Shown here one piece after another: positions 1-35,236 of a DNA stretch of 35,236 nt; the stretch's first letter is position 1; every line of letters starts with the position of its first letter. The stretch is from a virus (taxonomy: Duplodnaviria > Heunggongvirae > Uroviricota > Caudoviricetes). The position numbers and the translations under genes were made by a program. Under the pieces are notes generated by a model. The model was not told where the DNA came from and ran no database searches. It saw only the letters and a program-made list of their open reading frames with translations. Location of the stretch: IMG/VR virus record IMGVR_UViG_2724679058_000007. The stretch is one strand, 5' to 3'.

Positions 1-77
1 ATGAAACCCGGACCTGAACATGTCTTATTGCGTGATTGTTTCTTTCATTTGATACTGCATTTCCCAGAGTTCAGTAA

Positions 78-134
78 GCGAAATGATGCGCCGCGCGATA
101 AATGCGCCCATTTCCGTGAGATAAATGGCATCGC
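78..134. repeat. Candidate transposase-binding end repeats (possible phage right end)
   Basis: Direct repeats of GATAAATG at 97-104 and 120-127 (23 bp apart) plus related AAATGATGCG at about 83-90, immediately outside the invertase gene. Resembles my memory of Mu R-end sites (CGATAAATGCG); not verified. Confidence 0.3.
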
Positions 135-161
135 TGCGGCGTTTCAATATTTGCAAAAGAA

Positions 162-742
162 TTACAATCCTACCGCGTCACCCTTTCTCTGACCATCTAC
201 CGGAAAATACCGGTACAACGTCGATAACCCCACTCCATAGATAATGGCCAACTGCTGACGGGTATGCCCCTTAACCAATAGCCGTGCAATCTGCTCCCGC
301 TCATGCGGCTTTAATGCGTTGGGCCTTCCACCTGTGCGTCCCTGTGCTCTGGCAGCTGCAATCCGGCAAGTGTGCGTTCAACGATCAGCTCACGTTCCAT
401 CTCCGCCAGCGCCGACATCACATGGAAAAAGAAGCGTCCCATAGCAGTGCTGGTATCAATACTGTCTGTTAAAGAGCGGAAGTGGGCACCGCGTTCATGT
501 AACTCTGATATCAATGCGATCAGGTTCTTAACGCTGCGCCCCAGCCTGTCCAGTTTCCACACGACCAGGGTGTCTCCGCTATTAACGCACTTTAAAGCAC
601 GTTTCAGACCGGGACGGCTGGCAACTTTTCCGCTCATACGGTCTTCAAAAATGCGGTCACAGTTTGCGCTTGTGAGTGCATTACGTTGTAAATCGCTGTT
701 CTGGTCGATTGTTGATACGCGGATATAACCAATGACGGCCAT
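162..742 (-). pseudogene. gin: Gin/Hin-family serine DNA invertase, reading frame interrupted by a 1-nt deletion near 350-362
   Basis: From ATG at 740-742 the product reads MAVIGYIRVSTIDQNSDLQRNALTSANCDRIFEDRMSGK...SLTDSIDTSTAMGRFFFHVMSALAEMERELIVERTLAGL, a serine-recombinase catalytic domain. It then runs into a stop at 311, while a shifted frame continues AAARAQGRTGGRPNALKPHEREQIARLLVKGHTRQQLAIIYGVGLSTLYRYF to a stop at 162-164 (HTH domain). Confidence 0.8.
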
Positions 743-805
743 CAATTCTCCTCCTCTATGTTGCGGTGGGAGGATTTTCACAGATTTCGCTACGTGCAAC
801 TGCTT

Positions 806-830
806 TTCCAAAAACCTTGGTTTGGGAGAA
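806..830 (+). repeat. hix/gix-like invertase crossover site (left)
   Basis: TTCCAAAAACCTTGGTTTGGGAGAA; its 19-bp core CAAAAACCTTGGTTTGGGA (809-827) recurs as a perfect inverted copy at 3004-3022. Resembles Hin/Gin sites as I recall them (AAACCAAGGTTTTTGA). Confidence 0.8.
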
Positions 831-1304
831 GGCTCTGCATTGCCTGTTGGTGTGCCTGTTCCGTGGCCTTCAGCCACTCCGCCAACAGGCTGGCTGAAAT
901 GCAATGGTGCGGCTTTTTCTGCTGAAGAATACCCGGAACTGGCAAAGGCTTACCCGACAAATAAATTGCCTGATTTACGCGGTGAATTTATTCGCGGCTG
1001 GGATGACGGGCGCGGGGTTGATGTTGGGCGTGCTTTATTGAGCCTTCAGGCTGGGATGCTGGAAAAGCACCGTCATATTGTTGTTGCCAATGATGGTTAC
1101 GACACAAAAGATGAATGGGAACTGGCTACGATTTTCAAAAAGACATACACACAAGGACGGGGACTTGATGCCACAAATACAGGAGGGAGTCTGATCCCAT
1201 CACCGACACTTCATTCACGAGGGAGTATCGGTAATACTGGCGGGAGTGAAACCCGTCCACGAAATATTGCATTTAACTTTATCGTGAGGCTGCATAATGG
1301 ATAA
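809..1304 (+). CDS. Alternative tail-fibre C-terminal variable region (Sv'-like), promoterless in this orientation
   Basis: ORF 732..1304 contains FSKNLGLGEGSALPVG, matching PALFVKNLGLG in the expressed fibre gene on the other strand. Only the part distal to the crossover site would be fused to the constant region after inversion. Confidence 0.6.
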
Positions 1305-1899
1305 CGCCGTATTAAATAGCGAGCTTATTGCCACGAAGGCGGGGAATATTACCGTCTATAACTATGATGGTGAAACTCGGGAATATATTTCCACTTCAAA
1401 TGAATATCTTGCCATTGGTGTCGGTATCCCTGCATATTCCTGTTTAGATGCCCCTGGCACACATAAGGCGGGTTATGCTATCTGCCGTTCGATGGATTTA
1501 AACTCATGGGAATATGTGCCAGACCATCGCGGTGAAGTTGTCTATAACACCGAAACGGGAGAATCAAAAGAAATCACAGCTCCGGGTGATTACCCTGAAA
1601 ATACAACCACTATCACCCCTTTATCTCCATACGATAAATGGGATGGTGATAAATGGGTGACCGATACTGAGGCACAGCATAGCGCCGCAGTAGACGCGGC
1701 AGAAGCACAGCGTCAGTCACTGATTGATGCTGCAATGGCTTCCATCGGTCTGATTCAGCTGAAATTACAGGCCGGACGGAAGCTGATGCAGGCAGAAACA
1801 ACCCGGCTTAACGCTGTGCTGGATTACATTGACGCGGTGACGGCAACAGATACCAGCACCGCGCCGGATGTCATCTGGCCTGAACTGCCGGAGGCGTAG
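1297..1899 (+). CDS. Tail fibre assembly protein (U'-like, partner of the alternative fibre tip)
   Basis: 200 aa; C-terminal WVTDTEAQHSAAVDAAEAQRQSLIDAA...LNAVLDYIDAVTATDTSTAPDVIWPELP is the typical Tfa chaperone motif; start overlaps the Sv' stop. Confidence 0.75.
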   Translation: MDNAVLNSELIATKAGNITVYNYDGETREYISTSNEYLAIGVGIPAYSCLDAPGTHKAGYAICRSMDLNSWEYVPDHRGEVVYNTETGESKEITAPGDYPENTTTITPLSPYDKWDGDKWVTDTEAQHSAAVDAAEAQRQSLIDAAMASIGLIQLKLQAGRKLMQAETTRLNAVLDYIDAVTATDTSTAPDVIWPELPEA

Positions 1900-2314
1900 G
1901 CCATTCAATATCTGGCGCACCGGAAGTATCGACCATTTCCAGTGCGTCCAGGTAATCCAGCCACGCGTTATACTGTACCTTTTCGGCGTCTTTCAGCCGT
2001 CCCATTGCAGCTTTTCCCGGCCATTGCTTGCTGTTCATGTACTCGTTAGCCTGGTCGATTAGCAGTTGTTTTTGTGCTTCAGTTGCTGCAACAAGTTCAT
2101 CGTGCGTTGGCGGCGGAATATCACCCCAGGCAGGAAAACCATCTTCACCAGCAATGCGGATTTTCCCTTTCGGTGGTTCGCCTGAATACTCAATAAACAG
2201 TTCTTCATCAACCTCCTTAGCATTGTCAAAATTCATTCCATTTGATTCATAAATTTCCTTCATAGCTATCGGATAGAAAGCATTTGTAGATACATCATAA
2301 AAATATTTATTCAT
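1871..2314 (-). CDS. Tail fibre assembly protein (U-like)
   Basis: Start taken at MNKYFYD; C-terminal ATEAQKQLLIDQANEYM...YNAWLDYLDALEMVDTSGAPDIEWPTPP Tfa motif; AT-rich; immediately downstream of the tail-fibre gene. Confidence 0.75.
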   Translation of the reverse strand: MNKYFYDVSTNAFYPIAMKEIYESNGMNFDNAKEVDEELFIEYSGEPPKGKIRIAGEDGFPAWGDIPPPTHDELVAATEAQKQLLIDQANEYMNSKQWPGKAAMGRLKDAEKVQYNAWLDYLDALEMVDTSGAPDIEWPTPPAVQAR

Positions 2315-2319
2315 TCTAA

Positions 2320-3501
2320 TTATCTCCCGATTGCAATCCATCGAGCGTAAATAAAGGCTGGTGATGATGTTGAATTTAATAATTTGAACTGAGTATTGCT
2401 GATAGGTTGAGCTGCAAAGCTATATACAGCTGAAGCGCCAGCGTTATCATAAGAAGCAACAAGCTGAACTGTACTGTAATTTGTAAAAGGTACGGGGAAA
2501 TTTATAGTCTGCGGATCTCCAATTTGACCAGAGGCTGCAATACCCCACTGGATAATAGTACCTCCTGGTAAAGATGCCCAGCCGGTACCGCTTGTAAAAC
2601 TTGACATATCCGGTATTTGTCCAGAACCTGTACCCACATTTTTTGTTGCCGCCGTTCCAAGCCCGGAAATATCAGATGATGTTGGTTTAAATCCTGTGTG
2701 GTACAACTTATACCAGTCAGAAAATGCAGTATCACTCGCTTTTATCCTCACACTAAAGTCAGGAATGGAACCGAGAGACGCACCGCAGATTTGCCACCCG
2801 GTTGAACCTGAGTTAGCAAATGAAATACCACCAGCCCACTGCCCAGGATAAGGACCGATATTATCTGCAGGGGCAAAATAATCAAAGCGACTGACGTCCA
2901 ACGTCGCCATAGTTCCGCTTACCTGGGCTGCCTTTATTCCAAGCCCCCACCCGCCATTTAAAGCAATTTTACCCGTTTTATCTGTGAAGGATGATTGCAG
3001 TGTTCCCAAACCAAGGTTTTTGACAAACAGCGCCGGGTCAGGAATATCAGCGCCGTTCTGGTCTTTGGCCAGCTTCTCCGCCAGCTTGTTCAACACAGTG
3101 GTCGCAAAATTCGGATCGTTGCCGAGGGCATCAGCCAGCTCTTTGAGCGTATCCAGCGTCTCAGGGGCGCTGCCTGCAAGCGCCGCAAGTGCTTTGGCCA
3201 CAAACTCCGTCGTCGCCAGCTTCTTGCTGTTATCGCTATTTGCAGGCGTAGGCGCTGTTGGTGTGCCGGTGAATGTCGGGCTGGCTTTCGGTGCGTACTG
3301 GGTATGCGGGTCTGCTGCCGCGATATGTTTCGCAAGGTCAGAACCGCCATTTTCAACCTGTTGCTTCAGGTACAGCGTGCGGCTGGCCAGTTGTTTACCC
3401 TGACGGTTAGAAATTCCGTCAGGCCCGCCCAGAACGGGGTCAGAGACCTCAATCTGGTAGATGCCCTCTTCCCACTGCGGGGTTTCAGGTAGGTTTGCCA
3501 T
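2320..3501 (-). CDS. Tail fibre protein (constant N-terminal part plus currently expressed variable C-terminal part)
   Basis: 393 aa, MANLPETPQWEEGIYQIEVSDPVLGGPDGISNRQGKQLASRTLYLKQQ; the hix-like site falls at about codon 160; the C-terminal two thirds are AT-rich and Gly/Ser-rich. Confidence 0.85.
   Translation of the reverse strand: MANLPETPQWEEGIYQIEVSDPVLGGPDGISNRQGKQLASRTLYLKQQVENGGSDLAKHIAAADPHTQYAPKASPTFTGTPTAPTPANSDNSKKLATTEFVAKALAALAGSAPETLDTLKELADALGNDPNFATTVLNKLAEKLAKDQNGADIPDPALFVKNLGLGTLQSSFTDKTGKIALNGGWGLGIKAAQVSGTMATLDVSRFDYFAPADNIGPYPGQWAGGISFANSGSTGWQICGASLGSIPDFSVRIKASDTAFSDWYKLYHTGFKPTSSDISGLGTAATKNVGTGSGQIPDMSSFTSGTGWASLPGGTIIQWGIAASGQIGDPQTINFPVPFTNYSTVQLVASYDNAGASAVYSFAAQPISNTQFKLLNSTSSPAFIYARWIAIGR
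3001..3025 (-). repeat. hix/gix-like invertase crossover site (right), inside the tail-fibre gene at the constant/variable junction
   Basis: Plus strand TGTTCCCAAACCAAGGTTTTTGACA; inverted copy of the 806-830 site. It encodes the shared KNLGLG motif in both tail-fibre variants. A compositional break (GC-rich constant part versus AT-rich variable part) coincides with it. Confidence 0.8.
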
Positions 3502-3503
3502 AA

Positions 3504-4081
3504 TTAACTGCTCCCGTGGTTATAGCTACCGTCATAGTTGACGGTGTTGTTGTAGCGAATGGCGACAGACTGATACTCAAGGCTCGCCAGATGGCAGCGG
3601 GCCGGAGCAAAGGCAGCGAGCGTCTGGCGTAACAGCGCCGCCTGATCGTTAGTAATGGGCTGCTGAAGGATGACGCGATAGACCGCCCAGCTTCTGCATC
3701 GCCATGGACGAAAAGCCCGTTGTACGTGTGTTTGCCGTCGTAGCCAATCTGGCCAGTGCCTTCAATCAGATCCACTTCGCCGAAGCCGAAACGGCGGATA
3801 ATTTCCCGGATTGACCACGGCGTCCCTTTATAGCGGTGCAGCTCGATAGCAGATTTGATAAGCATGCGGCGTACATCGTCCGATTCCGCCAGCTCCCAGC
3901 CATCGCCAAACAGCGAGAACTGCTCGCCCAGCCATGGCAGCGCGGAACTGTCGACGATATCGACGAGATAGACCATCAGTACGCTCAGGTCGATGTTATC
4001 CAGCCGCCCGGCCAGTTTTCCCAGCGTTCTGAGGCTGATATCACCCTCAAGCGGCGGCGGGAGTTGTAGCGGCTCAGCCAT
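3504..4081 (-). pseudogene. Tail/baseplate protein, P2 gpI-like (DUF2313-like), with an apparent frameshift near 3685-3702
   Basis: Frame of ORF 3485..4081 gives a plausible N-terminus up to ...GQIGYDGKHTYNGLFVHGDAE, then low-complexity residues (RSIASSFSSPLLTIRRRCYARRSL...). A shifted frame reads ...AVYRVILQQPITNDQAALLRQTLAAFAPARCHLASLEYQSVAIRYNNTVNYDGSYNHGSS and stops at 3504-3506, 2 nt before the tail-fibre start. Confidence 0.6.
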
Positions 4082-5177
4082 CGGACACCCCGGTCATGTT
4101 AAGAGTGATCGCCGTGCAGTTTGCCCATTCGTTTTCTGCCACCACCCGCAGTGGCGGTGTCACCAGTTCAACCTGGTACACCCCGGAGACGGACAACACA
4201 CTGATAATCTGGCTGGGAACAATATCGCGCCCCAGCGTGGCGGTACGTGATGCCACCCAGTTCTGTATGGCGCTGTTGGCGTTGTCCTTTACCGAGTTGG
4301 CATCCTGGTCGCGGTAGATCGTGATATTGGCTTCAATGGTGTAATCCACCTGCAGAGGTGTTTTAGCCCGCACGGTATCAGTAAGTGGCCTGACTTTTTC
4401 GTCAGAACAGAAACTCTCTACCAGCGTGAGGATGCTGTCGTCCGGCAGGCCGGTACTGAGCAGCGGATACAGCTCTACGGTACCGGGGACCGGGGAAAGC
4501 ACGGCAACATCGACAATGTTGGGATGGGCCTGCATGGCATGAAAGCGGTATGCCATACGGCTTCCGGCGTTGGTGAATGACTCCGGGGCCAGTTTGATAC
4601 GCTCGCGGAGCCTGTCATTGTCTTCCTGCTCAGAACCGCCAGAACTGGCCGCCATATTGGTCACCTGCAGGTCGACGTTATCAATCTCATCGAGCAACTG
4701 ACTGACCTGCGCAGGCTGCCAGCCGTTGCCTGCGGCTCCCGGCTCGGTACAGGTGGCCGTGGCATTGACAAGCAGCAATCCGGCTTTCAGCACTACGTCC
4801 GTATCGGTTGCAAAAATAATGCTGTCGGAAGCGCTGACGCGGGTACCTGCCGGAATCAGCACATCAATGGCCAGTTCCTCATCCACGGAGAACTGGAGCG
4901 TGGTGGTGGCAGGCTGCGCGGCCAGTCGGTATACACCAACCAGTTCACCGAGGTAATCAATCATCGGCTCACGGGCAAAGGCGACCAGATTCTGTTTGGC
5001 CGCTTCCTGCGCCGCCACCCTGACCAGCATTTCGCGGTATGCCCACAGGTCAATCAACAGGCGCTCAGCCTGAGCGGGGTATAGCGTCTTGCCAGTTGCG
5101 GCTTCGTACTGTGCAATCATTTCAGCCGTGATTTTGTCAGCATCACGTTCAATAAAATCGGGTTCTGTCAGCGCCAT
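4074..5177 (-). CDS. Baseplate J-like protein (Mu gp47 / P2 gpJ family)
   Basis: 367 aa; position between gpW-like and gpI-like genes; overlaps both neighbours. Confidence 0.75.
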   Translation of the reverse strand: MALTEPDFIERDADKITAEMIAQYEAATGKTLYPAQAERLLIDLWAYREMLVRVAAQEAAKQNLVAFAREPMIDYLGELVGVYRLAAQPATTTLQFSVDEELAIDVLIPAGTRVSASDSIIFATDTDVVLKAGLLLVNATATCTEPGAAGNGWQPAQVSQLLDEIDNVDLQVTNMAASSGGSEQEDNDRLRERIKLAPESFTNAGSRMAYRFHAMQAHPNIVDVAVLSPVPGTVELYPLLSTGLPDDSILTLVESFCSDEKVRPLTDTVRAKTPLQVDYTIEANITIYRDQDANSVKDNANSAIQNWVASRTATLGRDIVPSQIISVLSVSGVYQVELVTPPLRVVAENEWANCTAITLNMTGVSDG

Positions 5178-5515
5178 AGCAACTCCTGAGTCCGGGGTTG
5201 TCCGTCAGAGCCTTTCCAGCTCACCCGGAGCGTAAGATGTTCGCCGTCGACGGCGGGTTTAACCGACATAAGCTGGCAGCGAGGCTCCCAGCGGCGAATG
5301 GCATCGACGGATTCGCGCACCACATGCGGAATAGCCCGGTCAATAGGCCAGTCGATATAAAGGTGCAGATTGCTGCCGAACTCCGGGCGATGCGGGTCGC
5401 TGCCGCGAGGAGTACGCAGGATGATTTGAATGGCCTGCCAGATATCATCCAGCCCCCGGACGATTTCGCCAGGGGCCTGCAGAGCCGGTTGCCAGAATAC
5501 TGAGGTTGTTTTCAT
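5168..5515 (-). CDS. Baseplate wedge protein, GPW/gp25 family (Mu gp46-like)
   Basis: 115 aa; size and synteny; MKTTSVFWQPALQAPGEIVRGLDDIWQAIQIILRTPRGSDPHRPEFGSNLHLY. Confidence 0.7.
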   Translation of the reverse strand: MKTTSVFWQPALQAPGEIVRGLDDIWQAIQIILRTPRGSDPHRPEFGSNLHLYIDWPIDRAIPHVVRESVDAIRRWEPRCQLMSVKPAVDGEHLTLRVSWKGSDGQPRTQELLWR

Positions 5516-5569
5516 GGGGGCAGTATTGCCCCTGTGCGGGAACGCCGATATTAAAGGCGTTTAAGAAGG

Positions 5570-6082
5570 TCAGTGGGAATGGTGATTAGAGTTCGGGCCG
5601 TCAGAGAGCATGCTGCCTGTCGAGTGGGCATTGCCGTTGATTTCAAGGTTGCCGTTCACCGTGGTGGTGTCAGCGGTCAAATCAATGGTTTTCCCCTTCA
5701 GGCTGATACCCACTGCAACCTCGATCACCACATGCTCGATACCACCTTTGACTGTCAGCGTATGGGTCGCACGGTTATAGCTGAACTCTGCGCCATCCGC
5801 GTATTTCGTGCCCCGGACATTTTTGTCGCTGAACGGCGGTTTATCGACTTCTGAGTACACCGCGCCCAGAATGACACCATCCTCGCCGTTGGCATCGAGC
5901 AGCACCTCAACCTGCTCCCCCACGTCAGGGAGCCAGTAATCCTTGTTATCCTGGGTATTGCGCTGCAGCACGTTAAGCCAGTTAGTGCGCAGGTTATCGC
6001 ATTCCGGCAGACGAACGCGGGCCTGAACCTTGTCGGCATCGACGGCGCTGACCGTACCGACCTGACGGGTGACGCCTGTCAT
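5570..6082 (-). CDS. Baseplate assembly protein V-like spike (Mu gp45-like)
   Basis: 170 aa; synteny downstream of the D-like hub gene. Confidence 0.7.
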   Translation of the reverse strand: MTGVTRQVGTVSAVDADKVQARVRLPECDNLRTNWLNVLQRNTQDNKDYWLPDVGEQVEVLLDANGEDGVILGAVYSEVDKPPFSDKNVRGTKYADGAEFSYNRATHTLTVKGGIEHVVIEVAVGISLKGKTIDLTADTTTVNGNLEINGNAHSTGSMLSDGPNSNHHSH

Positions 6083-7251
6083 TATTTTTTCTCCTTTATT
6101 ACCGTGGACGTGCTGCCGTCCGGTTTATAGACGGTCAGCGTCTGGGTTTTTCCGGTCTTTTTACCTTTCTTCGCTTTGCCCTGCGTAACCGGCCCTCGTG
6201 CCACTTCCAGTTCGGTGATGTAGCCGCTGTTACGGTCAAACGCATGGCGGGCAGTAGTTATCAGCCATGGCCCGGATAACTGACCAAAGCCCACCAGTTC
6301 AATTTTGTTGCCTGCTGTTAGTTGAGGCGTCCCCATCAGCGTCAGCGAGCCGTTCTGCTGGTATTCGTTATGCCTGGCCAGCGCCGAATCTGCTTTAATC
6401 CGGGCGCTGTCCGGGTCACTGACGCGGCTGTTGACCTTCAGTGAGTCGGCACTGGTGACCTTACCGCCTTTGGTTTGTTTGTCGCTTTCGCTGGTACCGC
6501 CATCAGCTTCATAAACGATCAGCTTTTTATCGCTGCTCTTCTGGTGTTTTACCTTCGCGGATTTGTAGACGCGGTTGATGGTGTCACGCAGGGAAAAGCT
6601 AGCCACATCCTGCGGCTTTAACTGCCTGATCGGCTCCTGACCGCGCAACGTGGCAAGATGAGAAAAAACCAGCTGGTCGCTGACCACTTTCACGGCATAA
6701 CCATACTCGCTGGCCAGTCGGCGCAGGAAGCCCACGTCCGTTTCAGCATACTGGGTCACCCGGTCAATTTTGATGGACTCAATACTGCCAACCAGCTTCA
6801 GCTGATGCTTTTTGGCAATCCGTCCGGCGATGGCCGCCAGCGTGGTGCTCTCGAAACCACGACTGGATTTTGTCCGCAGGGCGTTGTTGACCGACGTGGC
6901 CACGCCCCGGATAGCGACAACGGACGCGGGCGAACTCACCTCGATCTCGTCTATAGAGAACGTACCGCAGGACAGCAGCTTCTCGCCCTGATAACCCATT
7001 TTCAGCGTCAGCGTGTCACCCTTGCCCGGATACCACTTATCCAGCCAGCGGCCATCGGTGTCGTCCAGTTCCACCTCAATGGTATCGGACTCGCTTTTGA
7101 TGTTATCGCTGTAGGTTACGCGGGTGACATAGGGGGCGATATCGGTGGTTATGTTCTTCTGCAGATACCACAGCGTGAACACCGGACTCAGAACATCGCT
7201 GACGCCAGTTAACGCTGATGCGGCTTGTGCAGTGCTGTTTATCTCAGCCAT
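6082..7251 (-). CDS. Phage late control D-like / baseplate hub protein (Mu gp44 P-like)
   Basis: 389 aa; size and synteny between tail X-like and V-like genes. Confidence 0.7.
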   Translation of the reverse strand: MAEINSTAQAASALTGVSDVLSPVFTLWYLQKNITTDIAPYVTRVTYSDNIKSESDTIEVELDDTDGRWLDKWYPGKGDTLTLKMGYQGEKLLSCGTFSIDEIEVSSPASVVAIRGVATSVNNALRTKSSRGFESTTLAAIAGRIAKKHQLKLVGSIESIKIDRVTQYAETDVGFLRRLASEYGYAVKVVSDQLVFSHLATLRGQEPIRQLKPQDVASFSLRDTINRVYKSAKVKHQKSSDKKLIVYEADGGTSESDKQTKGGKVTSADSLKVNSRVSDPDSARIKADSALARHNEYQQNGSLTLMGTPQLTAGNKIELVGFGQLSGPWLITTARHAFDRNSGYITELEVARGPVTQGKAKKGKKTGKTQTLTVYKPDGSTSTVIKEKK

Positions 7252-7454
7252 GGGGCAATATCCTCTTCTGTACTGGCTTCTTCAGCCTCGATAACCGGAA
7301 TCAGTAACAACAGCCCGGAGGGCAGCACCGGCGTGATGGCCACGTGTGGATTGGCGGCAATTATCCGGGGATAGCCCAGCGGGTCGCCGTAGTACTGCCA
7401 TGCGAGAGAGTCCCAGCGCTCTCCGTCACGGGTGACATGCTCAAGAAACATCAC
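7239..7454 (-). CDS. Tail protein X-like (LysM-like small tail protein)
   Basis: 71 aa, ...WDSLAWQYYGDPLGYPRIIAANPHVAITPVLPSGLLLLIP, a pattern typical of the phage tail X family. Confidence 0.6.
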   Translation of the reverse strand: MMFLEHVTRDGERWDSLAWQYYGDPLGYPRIIAANPHVAITPVLPSGLLLLIPVIEAEEASTEEDIAPWLR

Positions 7455-10800: not shown

Positions 10801-10892
10801 GGTTGTTATCCTCTGAAAGCGGAAAAACGGAAGGAAAATGTCTGAGAGCCATGCAGAACAGCCGCGAGGGGCGGCTGTTAAGTGATGAGTCG

Positions 10893-25664: not shown

Positions 25665-25696
25665 GACCAGCCCGGTGCGGTAACACCAGGCTGGTC
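25665..25696. repeat. 13-bp inverted repeat with 6-bp spacer upstream of the methyltransferase gene
   Basis: GACCAGCCCGGTG cggtaa CACCAGGCTGGTC (one mismatch); additional perfect palindrome GTCTCGCGAGAC at 25741-25752; GACCAG occurs three times in the spacer. Confidence 0.5.
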
Positions 25697-25799
25697 ATCA
25701 ACCCACAGGTATGCACTGTGAGCCGACCAGGGTTCAGTCAGTCTCGCGAGACCAGACTAGCCTGCCATATTTTCACTGATTGCAAAAGGCTTACGGATA

Positions 25800-26570: not shown

Positions 26571-26584
26571 AAGAGGTAGTTAAA

Positions 26585-26610
26585 GGTGGTGGTGCATCTG
26601 CAGCACCACC
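26585..26610. terminator. Hairpin terminator between convergent methyltransferase and lipoprotein genes
   Basis: GGTGGTGC atctgca GCACCACC, 8-bp stem; T-rich run follows on the minus strand (ACCTTTAACTACCTCTTT). Confidence 0.5.
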
Positions 26611-26617
26611 TAAACAT

Positions 26618-27597: not shown

Positions 27598-27685
27598 TTG
27601 AACATATCTCAATTTGACATACCCGTTTGGGTGCGTACAATAGACCCAATAGAGTACATCATAACCCAACAGGAACACGGTGCAT
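27598..27685. promoter_or_regulatory. Divergent repressor/early promoter and operator region
   Basis: Plus-strand TTGACA (27614-27619), 16 nt, TACAAT (27636-27641) aimed at the early operon; direct repeats CAATAGA at 27638-27644 and 27647-27653 overlap the -10 region. Confidence 0.55.
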
Positions 27686-27910
27686 ATGAACAAACAACAA
27701 GTTCGGGCACGGCTGGTTGAAAGAGGCAGTAGCTTGCGCCAGTTCGCGCTTAACGCGGGCTATGAGCCACGAACAGTCACCCAGGCTGTCAGCCGCTGGG
27801 CAGGCAAAAGCGAACTTCCACGCGGTCGTTTGACTTATCGGATTTTGCGAGACCTTTCGGTCGCAATAGGCAAAGAAGTTACCCCCGGCATCCTCAAGGA
27901 GGCGTCATGA
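27686..27910 (+). CDS. ner: Ner-like DNA-binding protein
   Basis: MNKQQVRARLVERGSSLRQFALNAGYEPRTVTQAVSRWAGKSELPRGRLTYRILRDLSVAIGKEV; small HTH protein, first gene of the early operon. Confidence 0.7.
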   Translation: MNKQQVRARLVERGSSLRQFALNAGYEPRTVTQAVSRWAGKSELPRGRLTYRILRDLSVAIGKEVTPGILKEAS

Positions 27911-28212
27911 GTAAACCAAATACATCAAGCTCAGGTACCCGTATTTTGCGTGTCCTTAAGGCTTTACGCGGTCACGCTCTGAACGGTGTTTCTAACGGCG
28001 AGCTGGCGTCAGCTCTGGGCGAGTCCCCGGCGAATATCAATCGGGCGCTCAATACCCTTATCGAAGAAGGACTGGCCCTGAAACTGGATAACGGGCGTTT
28101 TGCCCCAGGAGTCCAGCTCTTACAAATCGCCATGGCGCACAGTACCGAAATGGCGCGGGCGCAGGATCGTATCAATGAAATTAACCAGCGTGTTATGGCT
28201 GGTAGTCGCTAA
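27907..28212 (+). CDS. Small winged-helix (IclR-type HTH-like) DNA-binding protein
   Basis: 101 aa; TRILRVLKALRGHALNGVSNGELASALGESPANINRALNTLIEEGLALKLDNGRFAPGVQLLQIAMAH. Confidence 0.5.
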   Translation: MSKPNTSSSGTRILRVLKALRGHALNGVSNGELASALGESPANINRALNTLIEEGLALKLDNGRFAPGVQLLQIAMAHSTEMARAQDRINEINQRVMAGSR

Positions 28213-28221
28213 GGAGTTGAA

Positions 28222-29133
28222 ATGGGACGCACAAAATCACAACCAGTTGAACTAGTGGAAGATGCACCGCTGACCGATGGTCTCAGTGTCAGTCTTAATG
28301 CTATGTCCGAACATCGCCTCGAAATCATGCAGCAGTTTGGTGATGGGCTGCCGTATGAACGCGATCGTATTGTTCATGAAACACGTTTTTACATGGCTCA
28401 GAGTGCAGAAGCCATGCTAGAGGCGGGTAAGCGACTGGTAATTCTCAAGGAGAATGAACCTCACGGCGATTTTATAAATATTCTCGAAAATGACCTCGGC
28501 CTTGAGCCGCGCGTCGCACGCCGCATGATGCAGGCCAGTGTGAAATTTTTGGGTAATGGCGATCAAAATTCAAAACGGACAGCGCTGACCGTTTTAGGTA
28601 AGACCAAGTTATATGAACTGATGGTTCTGGATGACGAAGAACTCGACGCATTAGCTGATGGTGGAACCGTCGCCGGGGCAACGCTTGATGATATTGATCG
28701 CATGACAAGCCGCGAACTGAAGGCTGCCCTACGCGAAGCCCGCGAAACCAACGCAGCACAACAGCGCGTGCTCGCCGACAAAAACGAAAAAATCGACTCT
28801 CTCTCCACCAAACTGGAGAAGAAATCCCGTATCCAGCCGCCCAAGCCTGACGAAGAGGTGAAGAAGCTGCGTGCGGAAGTTACAGCGTTAGCGGTTGAGG
28901 CAGAATCTGCCATCGCCGTTCGACTGTCCAGCGCCTTTGAGACCCTGTGCGCATACTGTGCTGAAAATATGATTGATACCCCCAGAGACTTTATGGCCGG
29001 TCTGGTCTGCCAGCTGGAAAGCACCGCGCGTAGCCTGCGCTCCACATTTGACCTGCCGGACGAGCCGACAGGCAACGCCGCCCCTTCATGGCTGACTGAC
29101 CCGACGCCAGAGATTAACGGGCAGGAGGCATAA
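28222..29133 (+). CDS. Hypothetical early protein (303 aa)
   Basis: ORF with GGAG upstream of the ATG; central coiled-coil/acidic region; sits directly upstream of the transposase. Confidence 0.5.
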   Translation: MGRTKSQPVELVEDAPLTDGLSVSLNAMSEHRLEIMQQFGDGLPYERDRIVHETRFYMAQSAEAMLEAGKRLVILKENEPHGDFINILENDLGLEPRVARRMMQASVKFLGNGDQNSKRTALTVLGKTKLYELMVLDDEELDALADGGTVAGATLDDIDRMTSRELKAALREARETNAAQQRVLADKNEKIDSLSTKLEKKSRIQPPKPDEEVKKLRAEVTALAVEAESAIAVRLSSAFETLCAYCAENMIDTPRDFMAGLVCQLESTARSLRSTFDLPDEPTGNAAPSWLTDPTPEINGQEA

Positions 29134-29136
29134 CCC

Positions 29137-30906
29137 ATGAGTGCCGCCCTGACTGAACGACTGGTTTATGTTGCCCGCGCGGCACGTGACGCGGGGCATG
29201 GTAAGCGTGGTGCGATATATGATGCCGCCTGCGCCGAACTGGGCATTTCCCGCGCCACCCTGCTGCGCAAGCTGAAGGAGGTATCAGTGACTGACAAACG
29301 TAAAAAACGCGCCGATGCCGGGCGCAGTGCTCTGAGCCGCGACGAAGCCGCGCTGATATCTGCCACGCTGCGCGAGGCCACCCGTAAGAACGGTAAGCGC
29401 CTGTATTCCATCGCGGATGCGGTGGAGACCCTGCGGTCAAACGGCTTTATCACTGCTGGCAGAACGGACGAGGCCACAGGCGAGTTTTTCCCGCTTTCCG
29501 AGGACACTATCAGCCGCGCCCTGCGGAACTATGGTTTGCACCCGGAACAGCTTGACGCACCGGCTCCGTCATCCGAGATGGCCAGCCTGCATCCCAATCA
29601 CGTCTGGGAGATTGATGCCTCACTTTGTACGCTTTACTACCTGAGCAACGGTCATAAAGGGCTGCAGGTGATGGACAGCGCTAAGTTCTACAAGAACAAG
29701 CCTGCCAACATCGCCCGCATCGCCAGTGACCGCGTGTGGAGTTATGAGATTACCGACCATACCAGCGGCTGGATTTACGTTGAATACGTGATGGGCGCGG
29801 AGTCCGGTGAGAACCTCTGTTCTGTTCTTATTAACGCCATGCAGGAACGCGGCGGCGCTGACGTGCTGCACGGCGTGCCCAAAATACTCTACCTCGACCC
29901 CGGCTCGGCGAACACCGCTGGCATGACGAAAAACATGTGCCGCTCGCTGGGCATCAATCTGATAGCGCACAAGCCGCATAACGCCCGCGCCACCGGGCAG
30001 GTGGAAAAGGCCCGTGACATTATCGAACGCAAACTGGAGCCAGGTCTCAAATTCCAGCCGGTTCATAGCCTGGACGAACTGAACGCGCTGGCGGTGAAAT
30101 GGCGCAGCCACTTTAACGCCACGGCGGTCCACAGCCGCCACGGTAAAACCCGCACGGATATCTGGCTGAAGATTACTGCTGACCAGCTGAAAAAAGCGCC
30201 ATCCGTTGAGGTTTGCCGCGAACTGGCGGTGGCCGCACCTGAACTCCGCAAGGTTACGTCAAAACTGCGCGTCTCGTTCCGGGGCAATGAGTTTGACGTT
30301 TCGACGGTACCGGGCGTACTGGTCGGCGAAAAACTGATGATTACCCGTAACCCGTGGCGCAACGATGTGGCGCAGGTGGTACTGACCGGTGAGGACGGGC
30401 ACGAGACGTTCTTCCTGGTCGAAGAGGTCAGAAAGAACGAGTTCGGCTTTGCCGAAAGCGCGGCGGTATTTGGCGAAAACTACAAAGCCCTGCCAGAGAC
30501 CCCGGCGCAGACGGCGGCAAAAGAAATCGAAGAGCTGGTCACGGGCACCGATAACGCCGCCGATGCAGCTGCTGCACGCAAGGCGAAGGCGCTGCCGTTC
30601 GGCGGGCGACTTGACCCTTACAAACATATCGACGACACCACGCTTCCGGCCTATATGCCGAAGCGCGGTCAGGCTTCAGACGTGCGCGGGCCGCGTATTG
30701 AGCAGCGTCCTATGACTCATGTGGAGGCGGCGAAAGCCCTGCGCGAGAAGTTCAGCGCTAACGGCCATACCTGGACGCCGGAACATTACCGCCAGTTAAC
30801 GGCGCAGTACCCGGATGGCGTACCGGAAGCTGCGCTGGATGAGGTCATGGTCGCCCTGACCACTCCGGCCCGCAACAGCGTTATCAGCATCGTTAACGGT
30901 AACTGA
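29137..30906 (+). CDS. DDE transposase (Mu A-like function, integrase-core/rve-type fold)
   Basis: 589 aa; N-terminal HTH-like region; core begins HPNHVWEIDASLCTLYYL with later KILYLDPGSANTA, typical of DDE integrase-core transposases; followed by a MuB-like ATPase. Confidence 0.8.
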   Translation: MSAALTERLVYVARAARDAGHGKRGAIYDAACAELGISRATLLRKLKEVSVTDKRKKRADAGRSALSRDEAALISATLREATRKNGKRLYSIADAVETLRSNGFITAGRTDEATGEFFPLSEDTISRALRNYGLHPEQLDAPAPSSEMASLHPNHVWEIDASLCTLYYLSNGHKGLQVMDSAKFYKNKPANIARIASDRVWSYEITDHTSGWIYVEYVMGAESGENLCSVLINAMQERGGADVLHGVPKILYLDPGSANTAGMTKNMCRSLGINLIAHKPHNARATGQVEKARDIIERKLEPGLKFQPVHSLDELNALAVKWRSHFNATAVHSRHGKTRTDIWLKITADQLKKAPSVEVCRELAVAAPELRKVTSKLRVSFRGNEFDVSTVPGVLVGEKLMITRNPWRNDVAQVVLTGEDGHETFFLVEEVRKNEFGFAESAAVFGENYKALPETPAQTAAKEIEELVTGTDNAADAAAARKAKALPFGGRLDPYKHIDDTTLPAYMPKRGQASDVRGPRIEQRPMTHVEAAKALREKFSANGHTWTPEHYRQLTAQYPDGVPEAALDEVMVALTTPARNSVISIVNGN

Positions 30907-30916
30907 GGAGGAAGGC

Positions 30917-32083
30917 ATGCTGGTACTGAAGCAACAACTGAAAGAGGCCCGCATCCCGCAGGCGGTGGTGGCAAGAGCTGTCGCCGTTTCCGAGGCCACG
31001 CTGGCCCAGATTGTGAACCATAACGAGTGGCCCCGCACCAGCCCGGAAGAAGTGCGCCAGCGTCTGGCGTCCTGGCTGGAAAGTCAGGGGATTGATACAG
31101 AGAAGAGTTTTGATGCTGCACAGGGCGCAGCCACGCCCCGTACAGCGGGTACTACCGATAAAACCAACCTCAGTGAGGAAGAGAACATGTTACTCAAAAA
31201 GCAGGTGTTATTTCCAGCGACCAAAAAAGCGTTTGGCCTTTTCCGTGACCCGTTCGCCGATGAAGCCATGCAGGGCGCGGACGATGTGTTCACCACGCCG
31301 GATATCCGCTACGTGCGTGAGGCACTGTTCCAGACCGCCCGTCATGGTGGCTTTCTGGCGGTTATCGGCGAGTCCGGTGCGGGTAAATCCACGCTGCGCC
31401 GCGACCTGATTGAACGCGTCAACCGCGAGAACGCGCCGGTGATTGTAATCGAGCCATACATCATCGCCATGGAAGACAACGACGTGAAGGGCAAAACTCT
31501 CAAGGCGGCAGCTATCGCCGAGGCCATCATCAGCACCATCGCGCCACTGGAGAGCATCAAACGCAGCCAGGACGCCCGCTTCCGACAGTTGCACCGCGTC
31601 CTGAAGGACAGCAGCCAGGCGGGTTTTAGCCACGTTCTGGTGATTGAGGAGGCCCACAGTCTGCCCATCCCGACGCTGAAGCACCTCAAACGCTTCTTTG
31701 AGCTGGAATCCGGCTTCAAAAAACTGCTGTCCATCGTGCTGATTGGCCAGCCTGAGCTGGCGGACAAACTGTCCGAACGCAACATGGAAGTCCGTGAGGT
31801 CGTCCAGCGCTGCGAGGTGGTTGAACTGCTGCCGCTGGACAACAGCCTCGAAGAGTTTCTGACGTTCAAACTGCAACGTGCCGGTAAGCAGCTGGCCGAC
31901 ATCATGGACGCCAGCGCAGTGGAAGCCATCCGTGCTCGCCTGAGCAATCTGGGCAGCAACCGTAAAAGCATGGTCAGCCTGCTGTATCCGCTGGCCGTCA
32001 GTAACCTGGTGATAGCCGCCATGAATCTGGCTGCTGAAATCGGGGTTCCGCAGGTCAACGCCGACGTCGTTAAAGGGGTTTAA
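30917..32083 (+). CDS. Transposition ATPase (Mu B-like AAA+ protein)
   Basis: 388 aa; strong RBS GAGGAGG before the ATG; Walker A GESGAGKST; N-terminal HTH-like segment. Confidence 0.75.
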   Translation: MLVLKQQLKEARIPQAVVARAVAVSEATLAQIVNHNEWPRTSPEEVRQRLASWLESQGIDTEKSFDAAQGAATPRTAGTTDKTNLSEEENMLLKKQVLFPATKKAFGLFRDPFADEAMQGADDVFTTPDIRYVREALFQTARHGGFLAVIGESGAGKSTLRRDLIERVNRENAPVIVIEPYIIAMEDNDVKGKTLKAAAIAEAIISTIAPLESIKRSQDARFRQLHRVLKDSSQAGFSHVLVIEEAHSLPIPTLKHLKRFFELESGFKKLLSIVLIGQPELADKLSERNMEVREVVQRCEVVELLPLDNSLEEFLTFKLQRAGKQLADIMDASAVEAIRARLSNLGSNRKSMVSLLYPLAVSNLVIAAMNLAAEIGVPQVNADVVKGV

Positions 32084-32085
32084 TC

Positions 32086-32355
32086 ATGAAATCCATCGCC
32101 GATATCAACCAGCAGATGAACAAGGTGCAGTCCGCCATTATGGCGCTCAACGCCATGAACACCACCGTGCAGAGCGTCATGATTGCGGGCAGTAAGCCGG
32201 TTATCCGTATCGCCCGCAACGGGCACTGTGCCCGCCTGCTGGAGCAGGGCAAAGCGAGTTATACCCATGTTGGTCATGACGGTTCAGGGCGCTTTCGTCA
32301 GGGCGTCTTTGAGTTGCATGGCTGCCGTATTACCTGGTCAGAGTCATTACATTAA
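32086..32355 (+). CDS. Hypothetical protein (89 aa)
   Basis: ORF with AAAGGGG upstream; no family recognised. Confidence 0.4.
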   Translation: MKSIADINQQMNKVQSAIMALNAMNTTVQSVMIAGSKPVIRIARNGHCARLLEQGKASYTHVGHDGSGRFRQGVFELHGCRITWSESLH

Positions 32356-32372
32356 CCACAAGGTGAACAGAG

Positions 32373-32984
32373 ATGAGCGAAGTAAATAAAGAAGACTACA
32401 TGAAAGACCGCAAGGGGCGTCTGGTGCCGGTTGACCAGGTGTCTGACTATGACCTTGCGATGGATTCTTTCGTTAAAGAACAGGTTGCCGCCGCGAAAGT
32501 TAAACGCGATGAACTCAGCGACTTCAAGCGTCGTGCCTTTGACGAGTGCTATGCCTGGCTTGACCTTGTGGCCGAGAAGTACGGCAGAACGCGTGGCGGT
32601 GCCAAAGGCAACGTGACCTTCAGCAGCTTCGACGGTGCTCAGCAGATCACCATCCGCGTGCAGGAAACCCTGACCTTCGGGCCAGAGCTGCAGATTGCCA
32701 AAGACCTGATAGACGAGTGCGTCACCGAGTGGTCGGAAGGCGCGAACGCCAACCTGCGGGCCATCATTAGCGATGCTTTTCAGGTGGACAAAGAGGGCCA
32801 GCTTAATACCGGGCGTATTCTTTCCCTGCGCCGCGTCAAGATTCAGGACGAGCGCTGGAACCGGGCAATGGAGGCCATATCGGAATCACTGCAGGTGGCA
32901 ATGTCCAAAACCTATATTAATTTCCGGGAGAAAGATAAACACGGGAAGCTAATTAATATTCCGTTAGATATCGCTGCCATTTAA
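32373..32984 (+). CDS. Mu-like prophage early protein (DUF3164-like)
   Basis: 203 aa, MSEVNKEDYMKDRKGRLVPVDQVSDYDLAMDSFVKEQVAAAKVKRDELSDFKRRAFDECYAWLDLVAEKYG; position after the B-like gene. Confidence 0.5.
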   Translation: MSEVNKEDYMKDRKGRLVPVDQVSDYDLAMDSFVKEQVAAAKVKRDELSDFKRRAFDECYAWLDLVAEKYGRTRGGAKGNVTFSSFDGAQQITIRVQETLTFGPELQIAKDLIDECVTEWSEGANANLRAIISDAFQVDKEGQLNTGRILSLRRVKIQDERWNRAMEAISESLQVAMSKTYINFREKDKHGKLINIPLDIAAI

Positions 32985-33062
32985 TTTTAATTCAATTTCT
33001 TTTTATTTCGGCGTCAGCGCCGTGGGCTTCTGCACGCCGAAAACAGTATTGAGGAATAAATC

Positions 33063-33251
33063 ATGTCCATCAAATGTTCCAACTGTAAGAAAGGTATCAC
33101 CACCCTGAAGTTCAGCGACGCCAGCGTCATCGCCTCTGGCAAATACCATGTGCCAGCCGTCCTCATCACGCTGGTATGCCCTCACTGCAGCCAGCATTAC
33201 TACACCGAAGTCCCGACCATGGAGTTCATCCCCTGCGAGGCAACAAAATGA
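33063..33251 (+). CDS. Small zinc-ribbon protein
   Basis: 62 aa with two Cys pairs (CSNCKKG ... CPHCSQH). Confidence 0.45.
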   Translation: MSIKCSNCKKGITTLKFSDASVIASGKYHVPAVLITLVCPHCSQHYYTEVPTMEFIPCEATK

Positions 33252-33544
33252 AAGGCATGAAATTATATAACCGTTCGACGATCTACAATCTGGCCCTGAA
33301 AACCTTTGGTCCTGAAGCACAGGCGCTGAAGCTGATGGAGGAAGCCTCCGAGCTGGCCGCAGCTGCCGCCCGCAACATGAACGGACTGGGCAATGAAGTT
33401 GATCTGGCTGGCGAACTCGCTGACGTTGAAATCATGATTGAACAGTTCCGCCTTAACGGGATGGGCCTGATGATTGATTTTCATAAACAGAAAAAGCTGG
33501 AACGCCTTGCCGAACGCCTGGGGGTGACTTATGCCGCAGAATAA
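33248..33544 (+). CDS. Possible MazG-like nucleotide pyrophosphohydrolase
   Basis: Start at MKGMKLYN (ATGA overlap with upstream stop); LMEEASELAAAAARN and LAGELADVEIMIEQF resemble MazG-like EExxE/ELADV helices. Confidence 0.4.
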   Translation: MKGMKLYNRSTIYNLALKTFGPEAQALKLMEEASELAAAAARNMNGLGNEVDLAGELADVEIMIEQFRLNGMGLMIDFHKQKKLERLAERLGVTYAAE

Positions 33545-34220
33545 TGAAAAGCTGCTGGAGAAGTTAAAAAAGCTACTTGCGCTGGCTAAATCCGATAACC
33601 CCCATGAAGCGGCACTGGCACTGCAACGCGCCCAGAAACTGATGCAGGCCTATAACATCACCCAGGCTGACCTCGCACTCAGTGATATTGATGAAAGCGT
33701 CAGTAACTACTGGGCAGCAGGTAGCGTTAATCCGCCGCGTTACATGCTGGGTCTGCTGGACATTATCCAGGTGGCATTTGGCGTTAAGTCTATTATTCAC
33801 TCCGGCTTTAAACCCAGCGTTGGCTTTTACGGTAATAAAGACCGGGTTGAACTGGCCTCATATACATGGGAGGTACTGGCCAGACAATTAATCATGGCCC
33901 GTAAAAACTATATTCGACAGCAGAATAAAAGGATCAAAAACACGACCAAGACCAGCCGTGGTGACAAATTTGCCGAAGGGTGGGTTCTGGCCGTGCGTAG
34001 CGAGGTTCATTTATTTGCTATGTCCCGCGAAGAACGGGAGCTGGCAAGCCTCTGGCTTGAACAAAAATACCCTGATTCAGGAACAACCTCTGGCCGCAAA
34101 GCCGGTAAATCCCGTGACGCGGACATGTCCCGCCACATCGGTTACAGAGAGGGAGAAAACGTCCGCCTGCATCAGCCTGTCAGCGGGCAGGAACAGCGGA
34201 AGCTGGGGAGTGGCTTATGA
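33531..34220 (+). CDS. DUF2786-like phage protein
   Basis: N-terminus LLEKLKKLLALAKSDNPHEAALALQRAQKLMQAYNIT matches the characteristic start of this family as I recall it. Confidence 0.5.
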   Translation: MPQNNEKLLEKLKKLLALAKSDNPHEAALALQRAQKLMQAYNITQADLALSDIDESVSNYWAAGSVNPPRYMLGLLDIIQVAFGVKSIIHSGFKPSVGFYGNKDRVELASYTWEVLARQLIMARKNYIRQQNKRIKNTTKTSRGDKFAEGWVLAVRSEVHLFAMSREERELASLWLEQKYPDSGTTSGRKAGKSRDADMSRHIGYREGENVRLHQPVSGQEQRKLGSGL

Positions 34221-34432
34221 TGGCTGAATCTATTGTATGTTCCCTGTTCTGGTATGGTCTCGTGGGGTGGTGTACCGCTGAACTGCATCGCCGCTCAGGG
34301 TTTTACTCACGTTACAGCGGTGCCGGACACTGGATCAGTTGGGCCGTTATGTTCCTGTGCTGGCCTGTAGCGCTTCCTTTATATGTCGATTATATCGGTG
34401 GCGCAGGTAAAAGGAGTGGCGATGATGACTAG
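34217..34432 (+). CDS. Small membrane protein
   Basis: 71 aa with two hydrophobic helices (IVCSLFWYGLVGWCTA, ISWAVMFLCWPVALPLYV). Confidence 0.4.
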   Translation: MMAESIVCSLFWYGLVGWCTAELHRRSGFYSRYSGAGHWISWAVMFLCWPVALPLYVDYIGGAGKRSGDDD

Positions 34433-34850
34433 GCAGCGTTTTATTCAACTCATCCATATTGCCCGCAATGACCTCCAGATGGATGAGGATACCTACCGCC
34501 AGATGCTACAGGGGCTGACCGGCAAAGCCTCAACCAAAGGGATGGATACCACACAACTAAACCGCGTGCTGGACTCCATGAAAAAGAAAGGCTTTCGCAT
34601 TAAGTCTGCCGGGAAAGCCAGGCCCGGCTTACCGCTGGATAGCCATCCGCAGTCAAAGAAAATCCGTGCGCTATGGCTTGAAATGGCTACGGCAGGCGTC
34701 GTCCGAGACAGTTCAGAGCAGGCGCTGGCGCTATGGGTTAAACGGGAAACGGGCATCAGCGCGTTACGCTGGCTCAGCAATGAGCAAGCAAGTAGCGTGA
34801 TTGAGAAACTGAAGAAGTGGCAGCGCAGAGCTGCGGGGGTGAAGCAATGA
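34422..34850 (+). CDS. gemA: GemA-like protein (Mu gp16 family)
   Basis: Start at ATGATG with AAGGAG 6 nt upstream; MMTRQRFIQLIHIARNDLQMDEDTYRQMLQGLTGKASTKGMDTTQLNRVLDSMKKKGF. Confidence 0.6.
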   Translation: MMTRQRFIQLIHIARNDLQMDEDTYRQMLQGLTGKASTKGMDTTQLNRVLDSMKKKGFRIKSAGKARPGLPLDSHPQSKKIRALWLEMATAGVVRDSSEQALALWVKRETGISALRWLSNEQASSVIEKLKKWQRRAAGVKQ

Positions 34851-35236
34851 GCGACCTGAATCAGTTTCGTAGTAAAGGGCCGGAACTGTTGGTAGAGCTG
34901 GCACAGCATACCTCTGAGACCGTCCGCGAGATTATTGATATCGAACCCGCAGTTGCCGACCAGATTGGTCAGGCCGTAGCGAACCGCATGATGCAGGTCT
35001 GGGGCGGGCAAAACGTCTATTTCCCGATGGGCATGGTCTGGAAGGTCAGCCAGCGCGATCGGGAAATCTTTCTGGAGTTTGACGGGCGCAACCATCACGA
35101 ACTGGCCCGCAAATTTGGTGTTTCGCTACAGTGGGTTTACAGCGTGGTGAAGCGGGTCAGAAAAGAAGAACTGGATCGGATGCAGGGCAAACTGTTTGAT
35201 GGCGAACCTGATGCCGATACGGGGAAAAAGGAGTAA
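34847..35236 (+). CDS. mor: Mor/C-family transcriptional activator
   Basis: Start at MSDLNQF (ATGA overlap with the gemA-like stop); C-terminal HTH region ...REIFLEFDGRNHHELARKFGVSLQWVYSVVKRVRKEE; ends at the last base of the window. Confidence 0.65.
   Translation: MSDLNQFRSKGPELLVELAQHTSETVREIIDIEPAVADQIGQAVANRMMQVWGGQNVYFPMGMVWKVSQRDREIFLEFDGRNHHELARKFGVSLQWVYSVVKRVRKEELDRMQGKLFDGEPDADTGKKE

Follow-up and report, generated by a model that had tools for sequence, protein, structure and literature searches.

What kind of phage occupies the 35,236-nucleotide stretch of DNA deposited as IMG/VR record IMGVR_UViG_2724679058_000007, which is assigned to the Caudoviricetes and is called here, at its full length, the window? 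Its transposition genes run rightward on the plus strand from 27686, and its lysis and structural genes run leftward on the minus strand from the holin gene at 24614, whereas in the deposited record of phage Mu early and late genes are colinear. We conclude, with a probability of about 0.93, that positions 84-35236 belong to one BcepMu-type prophage, a temperate and transposable myovirus, which lies in a chromosomal DUF2625 gene of Escherichia coli and of which about 160 bp at the early end are missing here. The original prediction, which had read the window as a near-complete Mu-like prophage with divergent arms and had placed it with BcepMu rather than with Mu proper, is therefore correct in its interpretation, given the divergent order of BcepMu, the colinear order of Mu and the pattern of protein matches described below. 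It is also right in calling the element near-complete, as the window ends at the stop codon of Mor, and complete relatives reach their early end about 160 bp further on; the start of the phage has to be moved from position 60 to position 84, because 1-83 are E. coli chromosome. Such an element is already known, and near-identical copies stand in GenBank and RefSeq.

Affinities with BcepMu, Mu and P2

The layout was checked by a map of open reading frames (ORFs), by PGAP annotation carried over from a 99.5%-identical E. coli prophage and by Pfam and PHROG scans, and 51 window proteins were each compared by BLASTP with BcepMu, Mu and P2. BcepMu is matched by 36 of the 51, in unbroken synteny and with 30-79% amino acid identity: the transposase is 68% identical to gp09 and the ATPase 59% identical to gp08, and identity reaches 79% for the sheath and 62% for both TerL and the portal. 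In the record of Burkholderia phage BcepMu (NC_005882) gp16 to gp01 run leftward and the repressor gp17, with the lysis and structural genes, runs rightward, so that BcepMu and the window have the same divergent arms around a central repressor, with Mor nearest the early end. They also share an rve transposase with an ExeA/AAA_22 ATPase, the DUF3102, DUF3164, GemA and Mor proteins, a holin/SLT/Rz lysis cassette, Mu-type packaging and connector genes joined to a P2-type contractile tail (as seen by both Pfam and BLASTP), TG...CA ends with repeated GMGATAWWT motifs, and related motifs in the gaps of the late arm. The differences lie elsewhere: BcepMu gp03, gp04 (HU), gp06, gp07, gp13-15 and gp18-20 are absent from the window, the window has Dam, DUF2441 and DUF2786 proteins not found in BcepMu, and one long fibre gene with an acyltransferase stands at the late end of BcepMu, a place taken in the window by a Gin invertase together with an invertible fibre cassette.

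A Muvirus with a rearranged early region would account for part of this gene content. Matches to Mu (NC_000929) were found for Mor, GemA, TerS, TerL, the portal, F, G, gp36 and Gin, plus weak pieces of fibre and baseplate; both are transposable temperate myoviruses with TG...CA ends, and the window has an invertible fibre cassette resembling the G segment of Mu, with gix-like sites and an invertase 69% identical to Gin. Nevertheless, no BLASTP match was obtained to MuA, MuB, repressor c or Ner, the tail genes of Mu are represented by a single weak match to gp47, and the gene order follows BcepMu throughout. Mu has colinear early and late genes, its repressor at the left end and a Mu-type tail and baseplate, and the window differs on all three; the genes C, com and mom are absent from it. 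Mu duplicates 5 bp of its target, against 6 bp for the present element, which thus has neither the colinear order, nor MuA/MuB, nor the Mu-type tail, nor the 5-bp duplication of a Muvirus, and we consider its assignment to Mu proper extremely improbable.

The tail raises the opposite thought, namely that a P2-like prophage (Peduoviridae) has picked up a transposon. In fact nine tail and baseplate genes match P2, the BLASTP matches being restricted to FI, FII, U, D, V, W, J, I and H and to a weak one for the repressor. However, BLASTP found no match to Q, P/M, O, N, the integrase, cox or the replication genes A and B of P2, the head and packaging genes are of Mu type, and the insertion is bounded by transposon-type ends and not by att sites; the combination of Q, P, O, N and M with a tyrosine integrase and att integration that marks the Peduoviridae is not found, and this origin has a negligible probability.

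Several observations count against placing the element with BcepMu, or against regarding it as a functional transposable phage. Nucleotide similarity to BcepMu is minimal, since megablast aligns only 11695-13170 (6% of a 25-kb late-arm query) at 75% identity. By BLASTP neither the transposase nor the ATPase resembles MuA or MuB, and searches of the sequences of solved structures returned no MuA, TnsB, MuB or TnsC relative of either; therefore we infer the transposition chemistry from family membership only. The early terminus is missing from the window, so that its own target duplication cannot be read. Finally, the window copy would be unable to make virions if three single-base deletions, discussed in the last section, are real. 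As to rank, the genus guideline of the International Committee on Taxonomy of Viruses is roughly 70% genome-wide nucleotide identity, and the high genome-wide identity to BcepMu that a strict definition of Bcepmuvirus demands is not seen by megablast: the phage belongs to the BcepMu-like group and is not of the same species as BcepMu.

Termini, insertion sites and the central junction

The late-arm boundary was set by host sequence. Window positions 1-83 are a fragment of the E. coli DUF2625-domain gene that the prophage interrupts; they are 100% identical to the annotated gene and are matched in 1853 complete E. coli genomes, and homology to other copies of the phage starts at window 84, with the sequence TGATGCGCCGCGCGATAAATG. 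The late-arm terminus (84-127, plus strand), whose junction was mapped against three other insertions, begins with 5'-TG; GMGATAAAT stands in it twice, at 95-103 and 118-126 (23 bp apart), and the two repeats are presumed to be transposase-binding sites. Two GMGATAWWT motifs 23 bp apart are present at both ends of the element, the early end being seen in the three near-identical copies described next, and both BcepMu ends share the layout TGA-N8-GMGATAWWT. TG...CA termini are typical of BcepMu relatives, as is a Tn552-related rve transposase (PMC2628397).

The closest of these copies is the prophage of E. coli 21KM1392 (L003; NZ_CP151067, 3293867-3328818), which is 99.5% identical to the window over 3005-35236 and 99.9% identical over 84-831 and has the same gene order. 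It is 34,952 bp long and splits rlmC with the 6-bp duplication CTATGG; the other two split barA (L008, duplication ATGAAT) and dedA (L007, duplication CTCAAC), and all three have TG...CA ends. In each of these E. coli genomes the halves of one host gene and a single 6-bp duplication flank the whole unit of about 35 kb. The window copy occupies a fourth host gene, DUF2625, distinct from rlmC, barA and dedA, and four insertion sites among near-identical copies are direct evidence of transposition. The many insertion sites, each with a short duplication, and the TG...CA termini with repeated motifs are further traits of the BcepMu-like group. Complete copies extend about 160 bp past the stop codon of Mor and end in TCTAATCA; the early end of the window copy is predicted to read CATTTATCTCAAGTCTAATCA, with a second copy of the GCGAAA of window 78-83 and the remainder of the DUF2625 gene after it. 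An extra 330-bp gene annotated as 'Gp27 family' is present between Mor and the early end in L007 and in the KP12_2 record described in the last section, and the 21KM1392 lineage is without it.

The divergence of the two arms also suggests that two prophages might lie side by side, an early-gene transposable element and a P2/Mu-like structural prophage, with their junction at 24.6-27.6 kb. The composition of this region lends itself to such a view: GC content falls to 47-51% at 25-28 kb, and the genes for DUF2441, Dam and a 175-amino-acid protein have no BcepMu counterpart. A junction of this kind should show a second set of phage ends, as the original prediction had itself proposed, but no end-like repeats were found there. 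The window has the paired terminal motif at a single place, 95-126 (0.04 expected by chance), and neither a pattern search for this pair nor BLAST of both termini against the window found anything in 24.6-27.7 kb. Moreover, BcepMu has the same junction architecture, and the window contains neither an integrase nor another set of packaging or regulatory genes. With a single terminal pair and three insertions of the whole unit in one split gene each, the two adjacent prophages are therefore rejected, at a probability close to nil, in favour of one BcepMu-type element.

The genes at the junction form a variable accessory (moron) region (24990-27145), whose GC content of 47-51% compares with 56-60% in the phage core. 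By Pfam assignment it encodes a DUF2441 protein (24990-25556, minus strand) and a D12-class Dam methylase (25800-26570, plus strand), together with an uncharacterised 175-amino-acid protein (26618-27145, minus strand), for none of which BLASTP found a match in BcepMu, and its gene content differs between the otherwise near-identical E. coli copies L007 and L008. The PADLOC defence models matched the methylase and nothing else in the region. Its cargo could have an uncharacterised role in superinfection exclusion or against other phages, although that the slot is a hotspot for such cargo is a speculative proposal which we consider improbable. A 107-amino-acid ORF at 24746-25069 (plus strand), divergent from the holin gene, was dropped: it has no PHROG match, and in comparison with a 95%-identical relative its 23 differences fall on the three codon positions in similar numbers (9/6/8), which gives no coding signature. 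No tRNA genes were found in the window.

The two arms and their predicted control

The early arm is headed by a repressor gene that diverges from it and occupies the same position as BcepMu gp17. This gene (27187-27597, minus strand) encodes a CI/Cro-type helix-turn-helix (HTH) protein of 136 amino acids (HTH_3, E=3e-12; Phage_CI_repr, E=2e-6). The 88-bp gap between it and the first early gene holds a candidate early promoter (27614-27641, plus strand), TTGACA-16-TACAAT, which agrees with the consensus at 11 of 12 positions and would be strong and sigma-70-like. The transposition and regulation operon follows on the plus strand (27686-35236), with Pfam and PHROG assignments and BLASTP matches to BcepMu gp01, gp02, gp05, gp08, gp09, gp10 and gp12. 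Its first gene (27686-27910) encodes a 74-amino-acid HTH protein that had been called Ner; an HTH protein is indeed present at this place, and its identity as Ner or gp16 depends on weak matches to HTH_35 (E=0.007), phrog_769 (E=5e-5), which holds Mu Ner, and phrog_925 (E=6e-6), which holds BcepMu gp16. Then come a gp12-like HTH protein of 101 amino acids (27907-28212), a gp10-like DUF3102 protein (28222-29133), the rve DDE transposase (29137-30906), the AAA_22/ExeA transposition ATPase (30917-32083), an 89-amino-acid ORF (32086-32355), a DUF3164 protein (32373-32984), small ORFs (33063-33544), a DUF2786 protein (33531-34220), a 71-amino-acid ORF (34217-34432), GemA (34422-34850; Pfam E=3e-41) and Mor (34847-35236; Pfam E=1e-42), so that the rightward transposase, gemA and mor genes stand as predicted.

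The match of the transposase to gp09 covers 581 amino acids and that of the ATPase to gp08 covers 404. The rve domain of the transposase scores 31.5 bits in Pfam, just below the cutoff of 32.6, and the ATPase matches AAA_22 at E=3e-20. PHROG 310 (transposase) and PHROG 296 (ATPase) each unite the window protein, its BcepMu counterpart and MuA or MuB, respectively, a remote homology; a MuB-like ATPase can thus be spoken of at the level of profiles, but not on the strength of BLASTP. The two proteins correspond to those of BcepMu, the Tn552-related rve protein and the ExeA-type protein, and are not close homologues of MuA and MuB; the relationship of the BcepMu-type transposase to Tn552 is cited in PMC2628397.

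The late arm, read on the minus strand, opens with a lysis cassette and two small conserved genes (22263-24614), identified by Holin_2-3 and SLT Pfam families and by BLASTP to BcepMu gp21, gp22, gp23, gp25 and gp26. It comprises the holin (24264-24614), an SLT transglycosylase (23539-24261), an Rz-like protein (22896-23549) and the gp25-like (22567-22899) and gp26-like (22263-22574) proteins; an embedded Rz1 candidate at 22934-23278 gave no PHROG match. The head, neck and packaging module (13631-22263) matches BcepMu gp27-gp38 and Mu gp27-31 and gp36, and contains the Pfam families Phage_Mu_Gp27, Portal_Mu, Phage_Mu_F, Phage_tail_S, Phage_Mu_Gp36 and Gp37. Its genes encode, in order of transcription, TerS of the Mu Gp27 type (21718-22263), TerL (20198-21721), a Mu-type portal (18703-20198) with a frameshift at 19206, proteins similar to Mu F (17901-18722) and Mu G (17440-17898), a protease/scaffold protein (16128-17225) placed in PHROG 976 (head maturation protease), the capsid protein (15161-16114), a DUF2190 or cement protein (14794-15150), a Mu gp36-like protein (14346-14792), Gp37 (13882-14346) and an 83-amino-acid ORF (13631-13882). 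The head had been described as Mu-like, which holds for the packaging and connector genes; the protease and capsid proteins have no BLASTP match to Mu I or T.

The rest of the arm is a P2-type contractile tail and baseplate module (2320-13641, minus strand), as had been predicted from D, V, W, J, I, fibre and Tfa, and it is supported by BLASTP to P2 and BcepMu and by the families Baseplate_J, GPW_gp25, Phage_base_V, Phage_GPD, Phage_tail_X, Phage_P2_GpU, Phage_TAC_7, Phage_tube and Phage_sheath_1. It runs through the sheath (12214-13641), the tube (11693-12217), a 93-amino-acid ORF (11409-11690), the chaperones E (10996-11310) and E' (10896-11030), the tape measure (8335-10800), U (7451-8335), X (7239-7451), D (6082-7251), V (5570-6082), W (5168-5515), J (4074-5177), I (3485-4081, frameshifted at 3690) and the fibre (2320-3501). 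The E and E' ORFs overlap within 10896-11310, as in P2, where the pair is produced through a -1 frameshift; a canonical slippery heptamer was not identified in the overlap.

Four intergenic gaps interrupt the late arm, and three of them contain the 12-mer CTTTAAWATCSG on the coding (minus) strand, at 24664, 11361 and 5545. These are its only three occurrences in the window, and none of 100 shuffles gave at least three. The candidate late promoters built on it, of the form TTAA-N4-CTTTAAWATCSG, are found upstream of the holin gene (TTATAACGCGCTTTAAAATCCG, 24664-24685), of the tail chaperone gene E (TCTTAATCCCCTTTAATATCCG, 11361-11382) and of the W-J-I-fibre genes (TCTTAAACGCCTTTAATATCGG, 5545-5566). 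The G-like and protease genes are separated by the fourth gap, which holds a variant (TAAAGCAGATTAAAAGCG, 17280-17297, minus strand), with TAAAGCAGATTAAAAG at 17282-17297. Related motifs occur in other phages: in Escherichia phage PhiKM a CTTTAAWATC motif is present at three syntenic gaps, and BcepMu has the motif upstream of W, as GCTTTAATATCC before gp49, and a variant upstream of the holin and protease genes. It is plausible that the four motifs are Mor-dependent late promoters. A second element, TTTATAAAGGCTTTAC, lies in the G-like/protease gap (17366-17381, minus strand) and is kept in the window, PhiKM and BcepMu though the flanking proteins are 44-49% identical; the variant promoter element at 17280-17297 is also conserved among the three. 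This gap is syntenic with the G-I gap of Mu, where the Mu record annotates a strong gyrase site, and TTTATAAAGGCTTTAC may be a site for gyrase or else belong to a promoter.

A sequence of events can be proposed for the life of this phage from its homology with BcepMu and Mu. The CI-type repressor would keep the divergent early promoter shut, and upon induction the rightward operon would yield the Ner/gp16-like regulator, the rve DDE transposase and its ExeA-type AAA+ partner. Transposase and partner would act on the TG...CA ends with their repeated GMGATAAAT sites, and the genome would be replicated as it transposes to targets taken essentially at random, with a 6-bp duplication left at each. 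Mor, encoded by the last early gene, would then turn on the opposite-strand late promoters, for which the four candidates share a TTAA-N4-CTTTAAWAT-like motif, and the late arm would express the lysis genes, the Mu-type headful packaging and head genes and the P2-type contractile tail. Only one gene of the Mor/C family is present in the window, and one such activator may drive the TTAA-N4-CTTTAAWAT promoters in place of the two-step Mor-to-C cascade of Mu; direct control of all four by a single protein is nonetheless a conjecture, to which we give a low probability.

A predicted fibre switch, frameshifts and relatives

The late end of the element carries a module that the original prediction did not mention and that BcepMu does not have. 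It consists of a Gin/Hin-type serine DNA invertase gene (162-742, minus strand), frameshifted by a 1-bp deletion at 359, whose intact homologue in 21KM1392 provides the identity of 69% to Mu Gin given above, and of an invertible tail-fibre segment of 2.2 kb (804-3027) between inverted crossover sites at 804-827 and 3004-3027. The crossover sites form an inverted repeat of 24 nucleotides that is 92% complementary, and their core, CAAAACCTTGGTTT, matches Mu gix. The segment encodes two alternative fibre C-termini, each with its own Tfa chaperone, as indicated by the PHROG families for tail fibre and tail fibre assembly; one pair is on the plus strand (732-1304 and 1297-1899) and the other on the minus strand (1871-2341 and 2320-3004). 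A serine invertase beside inverted crossover sites of about 26 bp, together with alternative fibre C-termini and Tfa genes, is the arrangement of the Gin/Hin/Cin/Pin switches. Part of the segment is reversed in 21KM1392 relative to the window, and the region 831-3005 differs between the two copies both in content and in orientation; the baseplate genes at 3-8 kb also diverge (170 substitutions). The invertase would flip the 2.2-kb segment, producing two alternate fibre tips and a change of host range, although its activity in this copy is uncertain because the gene is frameshifted.

Are the frameshifts a property of the phage or of the sequence record? Relative to 21KM1392 the window has three 1-bp deletions, in the invertase (359), gpI (3690) and portal (19206) genes, each of which causes a frameshift and each of which removes one base from a doubled base (CC or GG). 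If they are real, this is the same BcepMu-type element in a defective and decaying state, which would form no particles and would not flip its fibres. Such a history is suggested by the fact that the deletions, seen against a copy that is 99.5% identical, each truncate an essential or functional gene, and inactivated copies do exist, as the copy of E. coli strain 571 has a frameshifted ExeA ATPase in its PGAP annotation. Over the roughly 27 kb in which the window and 21KM1392 are nearly identical (84-831 and 9-35.2 kb), however, two indels stand against one substitution; no large deletions and no insertion-sequence elements are present, and all other genes are intact. Since indels outnumber substitutions and each deletion hits a doubled base, errors of sequencing or assembly fit better, and we regard them as the probable source of the three deletions; real decay is rather unlikely, though not far-fetched.

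The relatives of the element extend well beyond these copies. At 93-97% identity, and at 96-97% over more than 90% of the window length, OM835952 ('Klebsiella phage KP12 clone KP12_2') is by megablast practically the same phage, with the same gene order. This partial sequence is filed under Vequintavirinae, yet the 34.9-kb record is a transposable phage of the BcepMu type, and it probably represents a prophage contig that was co-assembled and given a wrong taxonomy. Escherichia phage Phi06_2974 B is about 96% identical to the window, and PhiKM (PQ738613), which is filed by NCBI under Bcepmuvirus, is about 86% identical (81-92% over most of the genome) with the same architecture and modules. 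PhiKM differs from the window in its middle and early accessory genes, among which a Gam-like protein is annotated, and in its immunity region, and the invertase is not annotated in its partial record. Prophages about 89.5% identical and of the same architecture are known from some 600 complete E. coli genomes, ST131 among them. In total, relatives of the transposase-ATPase segment were found in 640 of 5426 complete E. coli genomes (about 12%), 22 of them at 95% identity or more and most near 89.5%. A separate 40,540-bp record, NZ_CP132021.1 (E. coli JCH8249), is almost wholly a related prophage and shares a carbamate-kinase flank with the chromosomal copy of strain GON1437; it may have arisen in assembly, or else reflect a prophage that is actively replicating or being packaged. 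Relatives of the transposase are spread over the Enterobacterales and Betaproteobacteria. The BcepMu family was described in 2004, with relatives in Salmonella Typhi (SalMu), Photorhabdus (PhotoMu) and Chromobacterium (ChromoMu) (PMC3417384), and BcepMu-like superclusters have been reported in Pasteurellaceae (PMC6776037).

As a phage type known since the description of BcepMu and SalMu, the element has little value for discovery. Its value is for annotation: the prophage boundary is set at 84, and three probable sequencing-error frameshifts and the mislabelled KP12_2 record are flagged. For the biology of the family, this is an element that inserts by transposition at random genes with a 6-bp duplication, and its enterobacterial lineage has exchanged the fibre and acyltransferase end of BcepMu for an invertible fibre switch in the style of Mu and P1.

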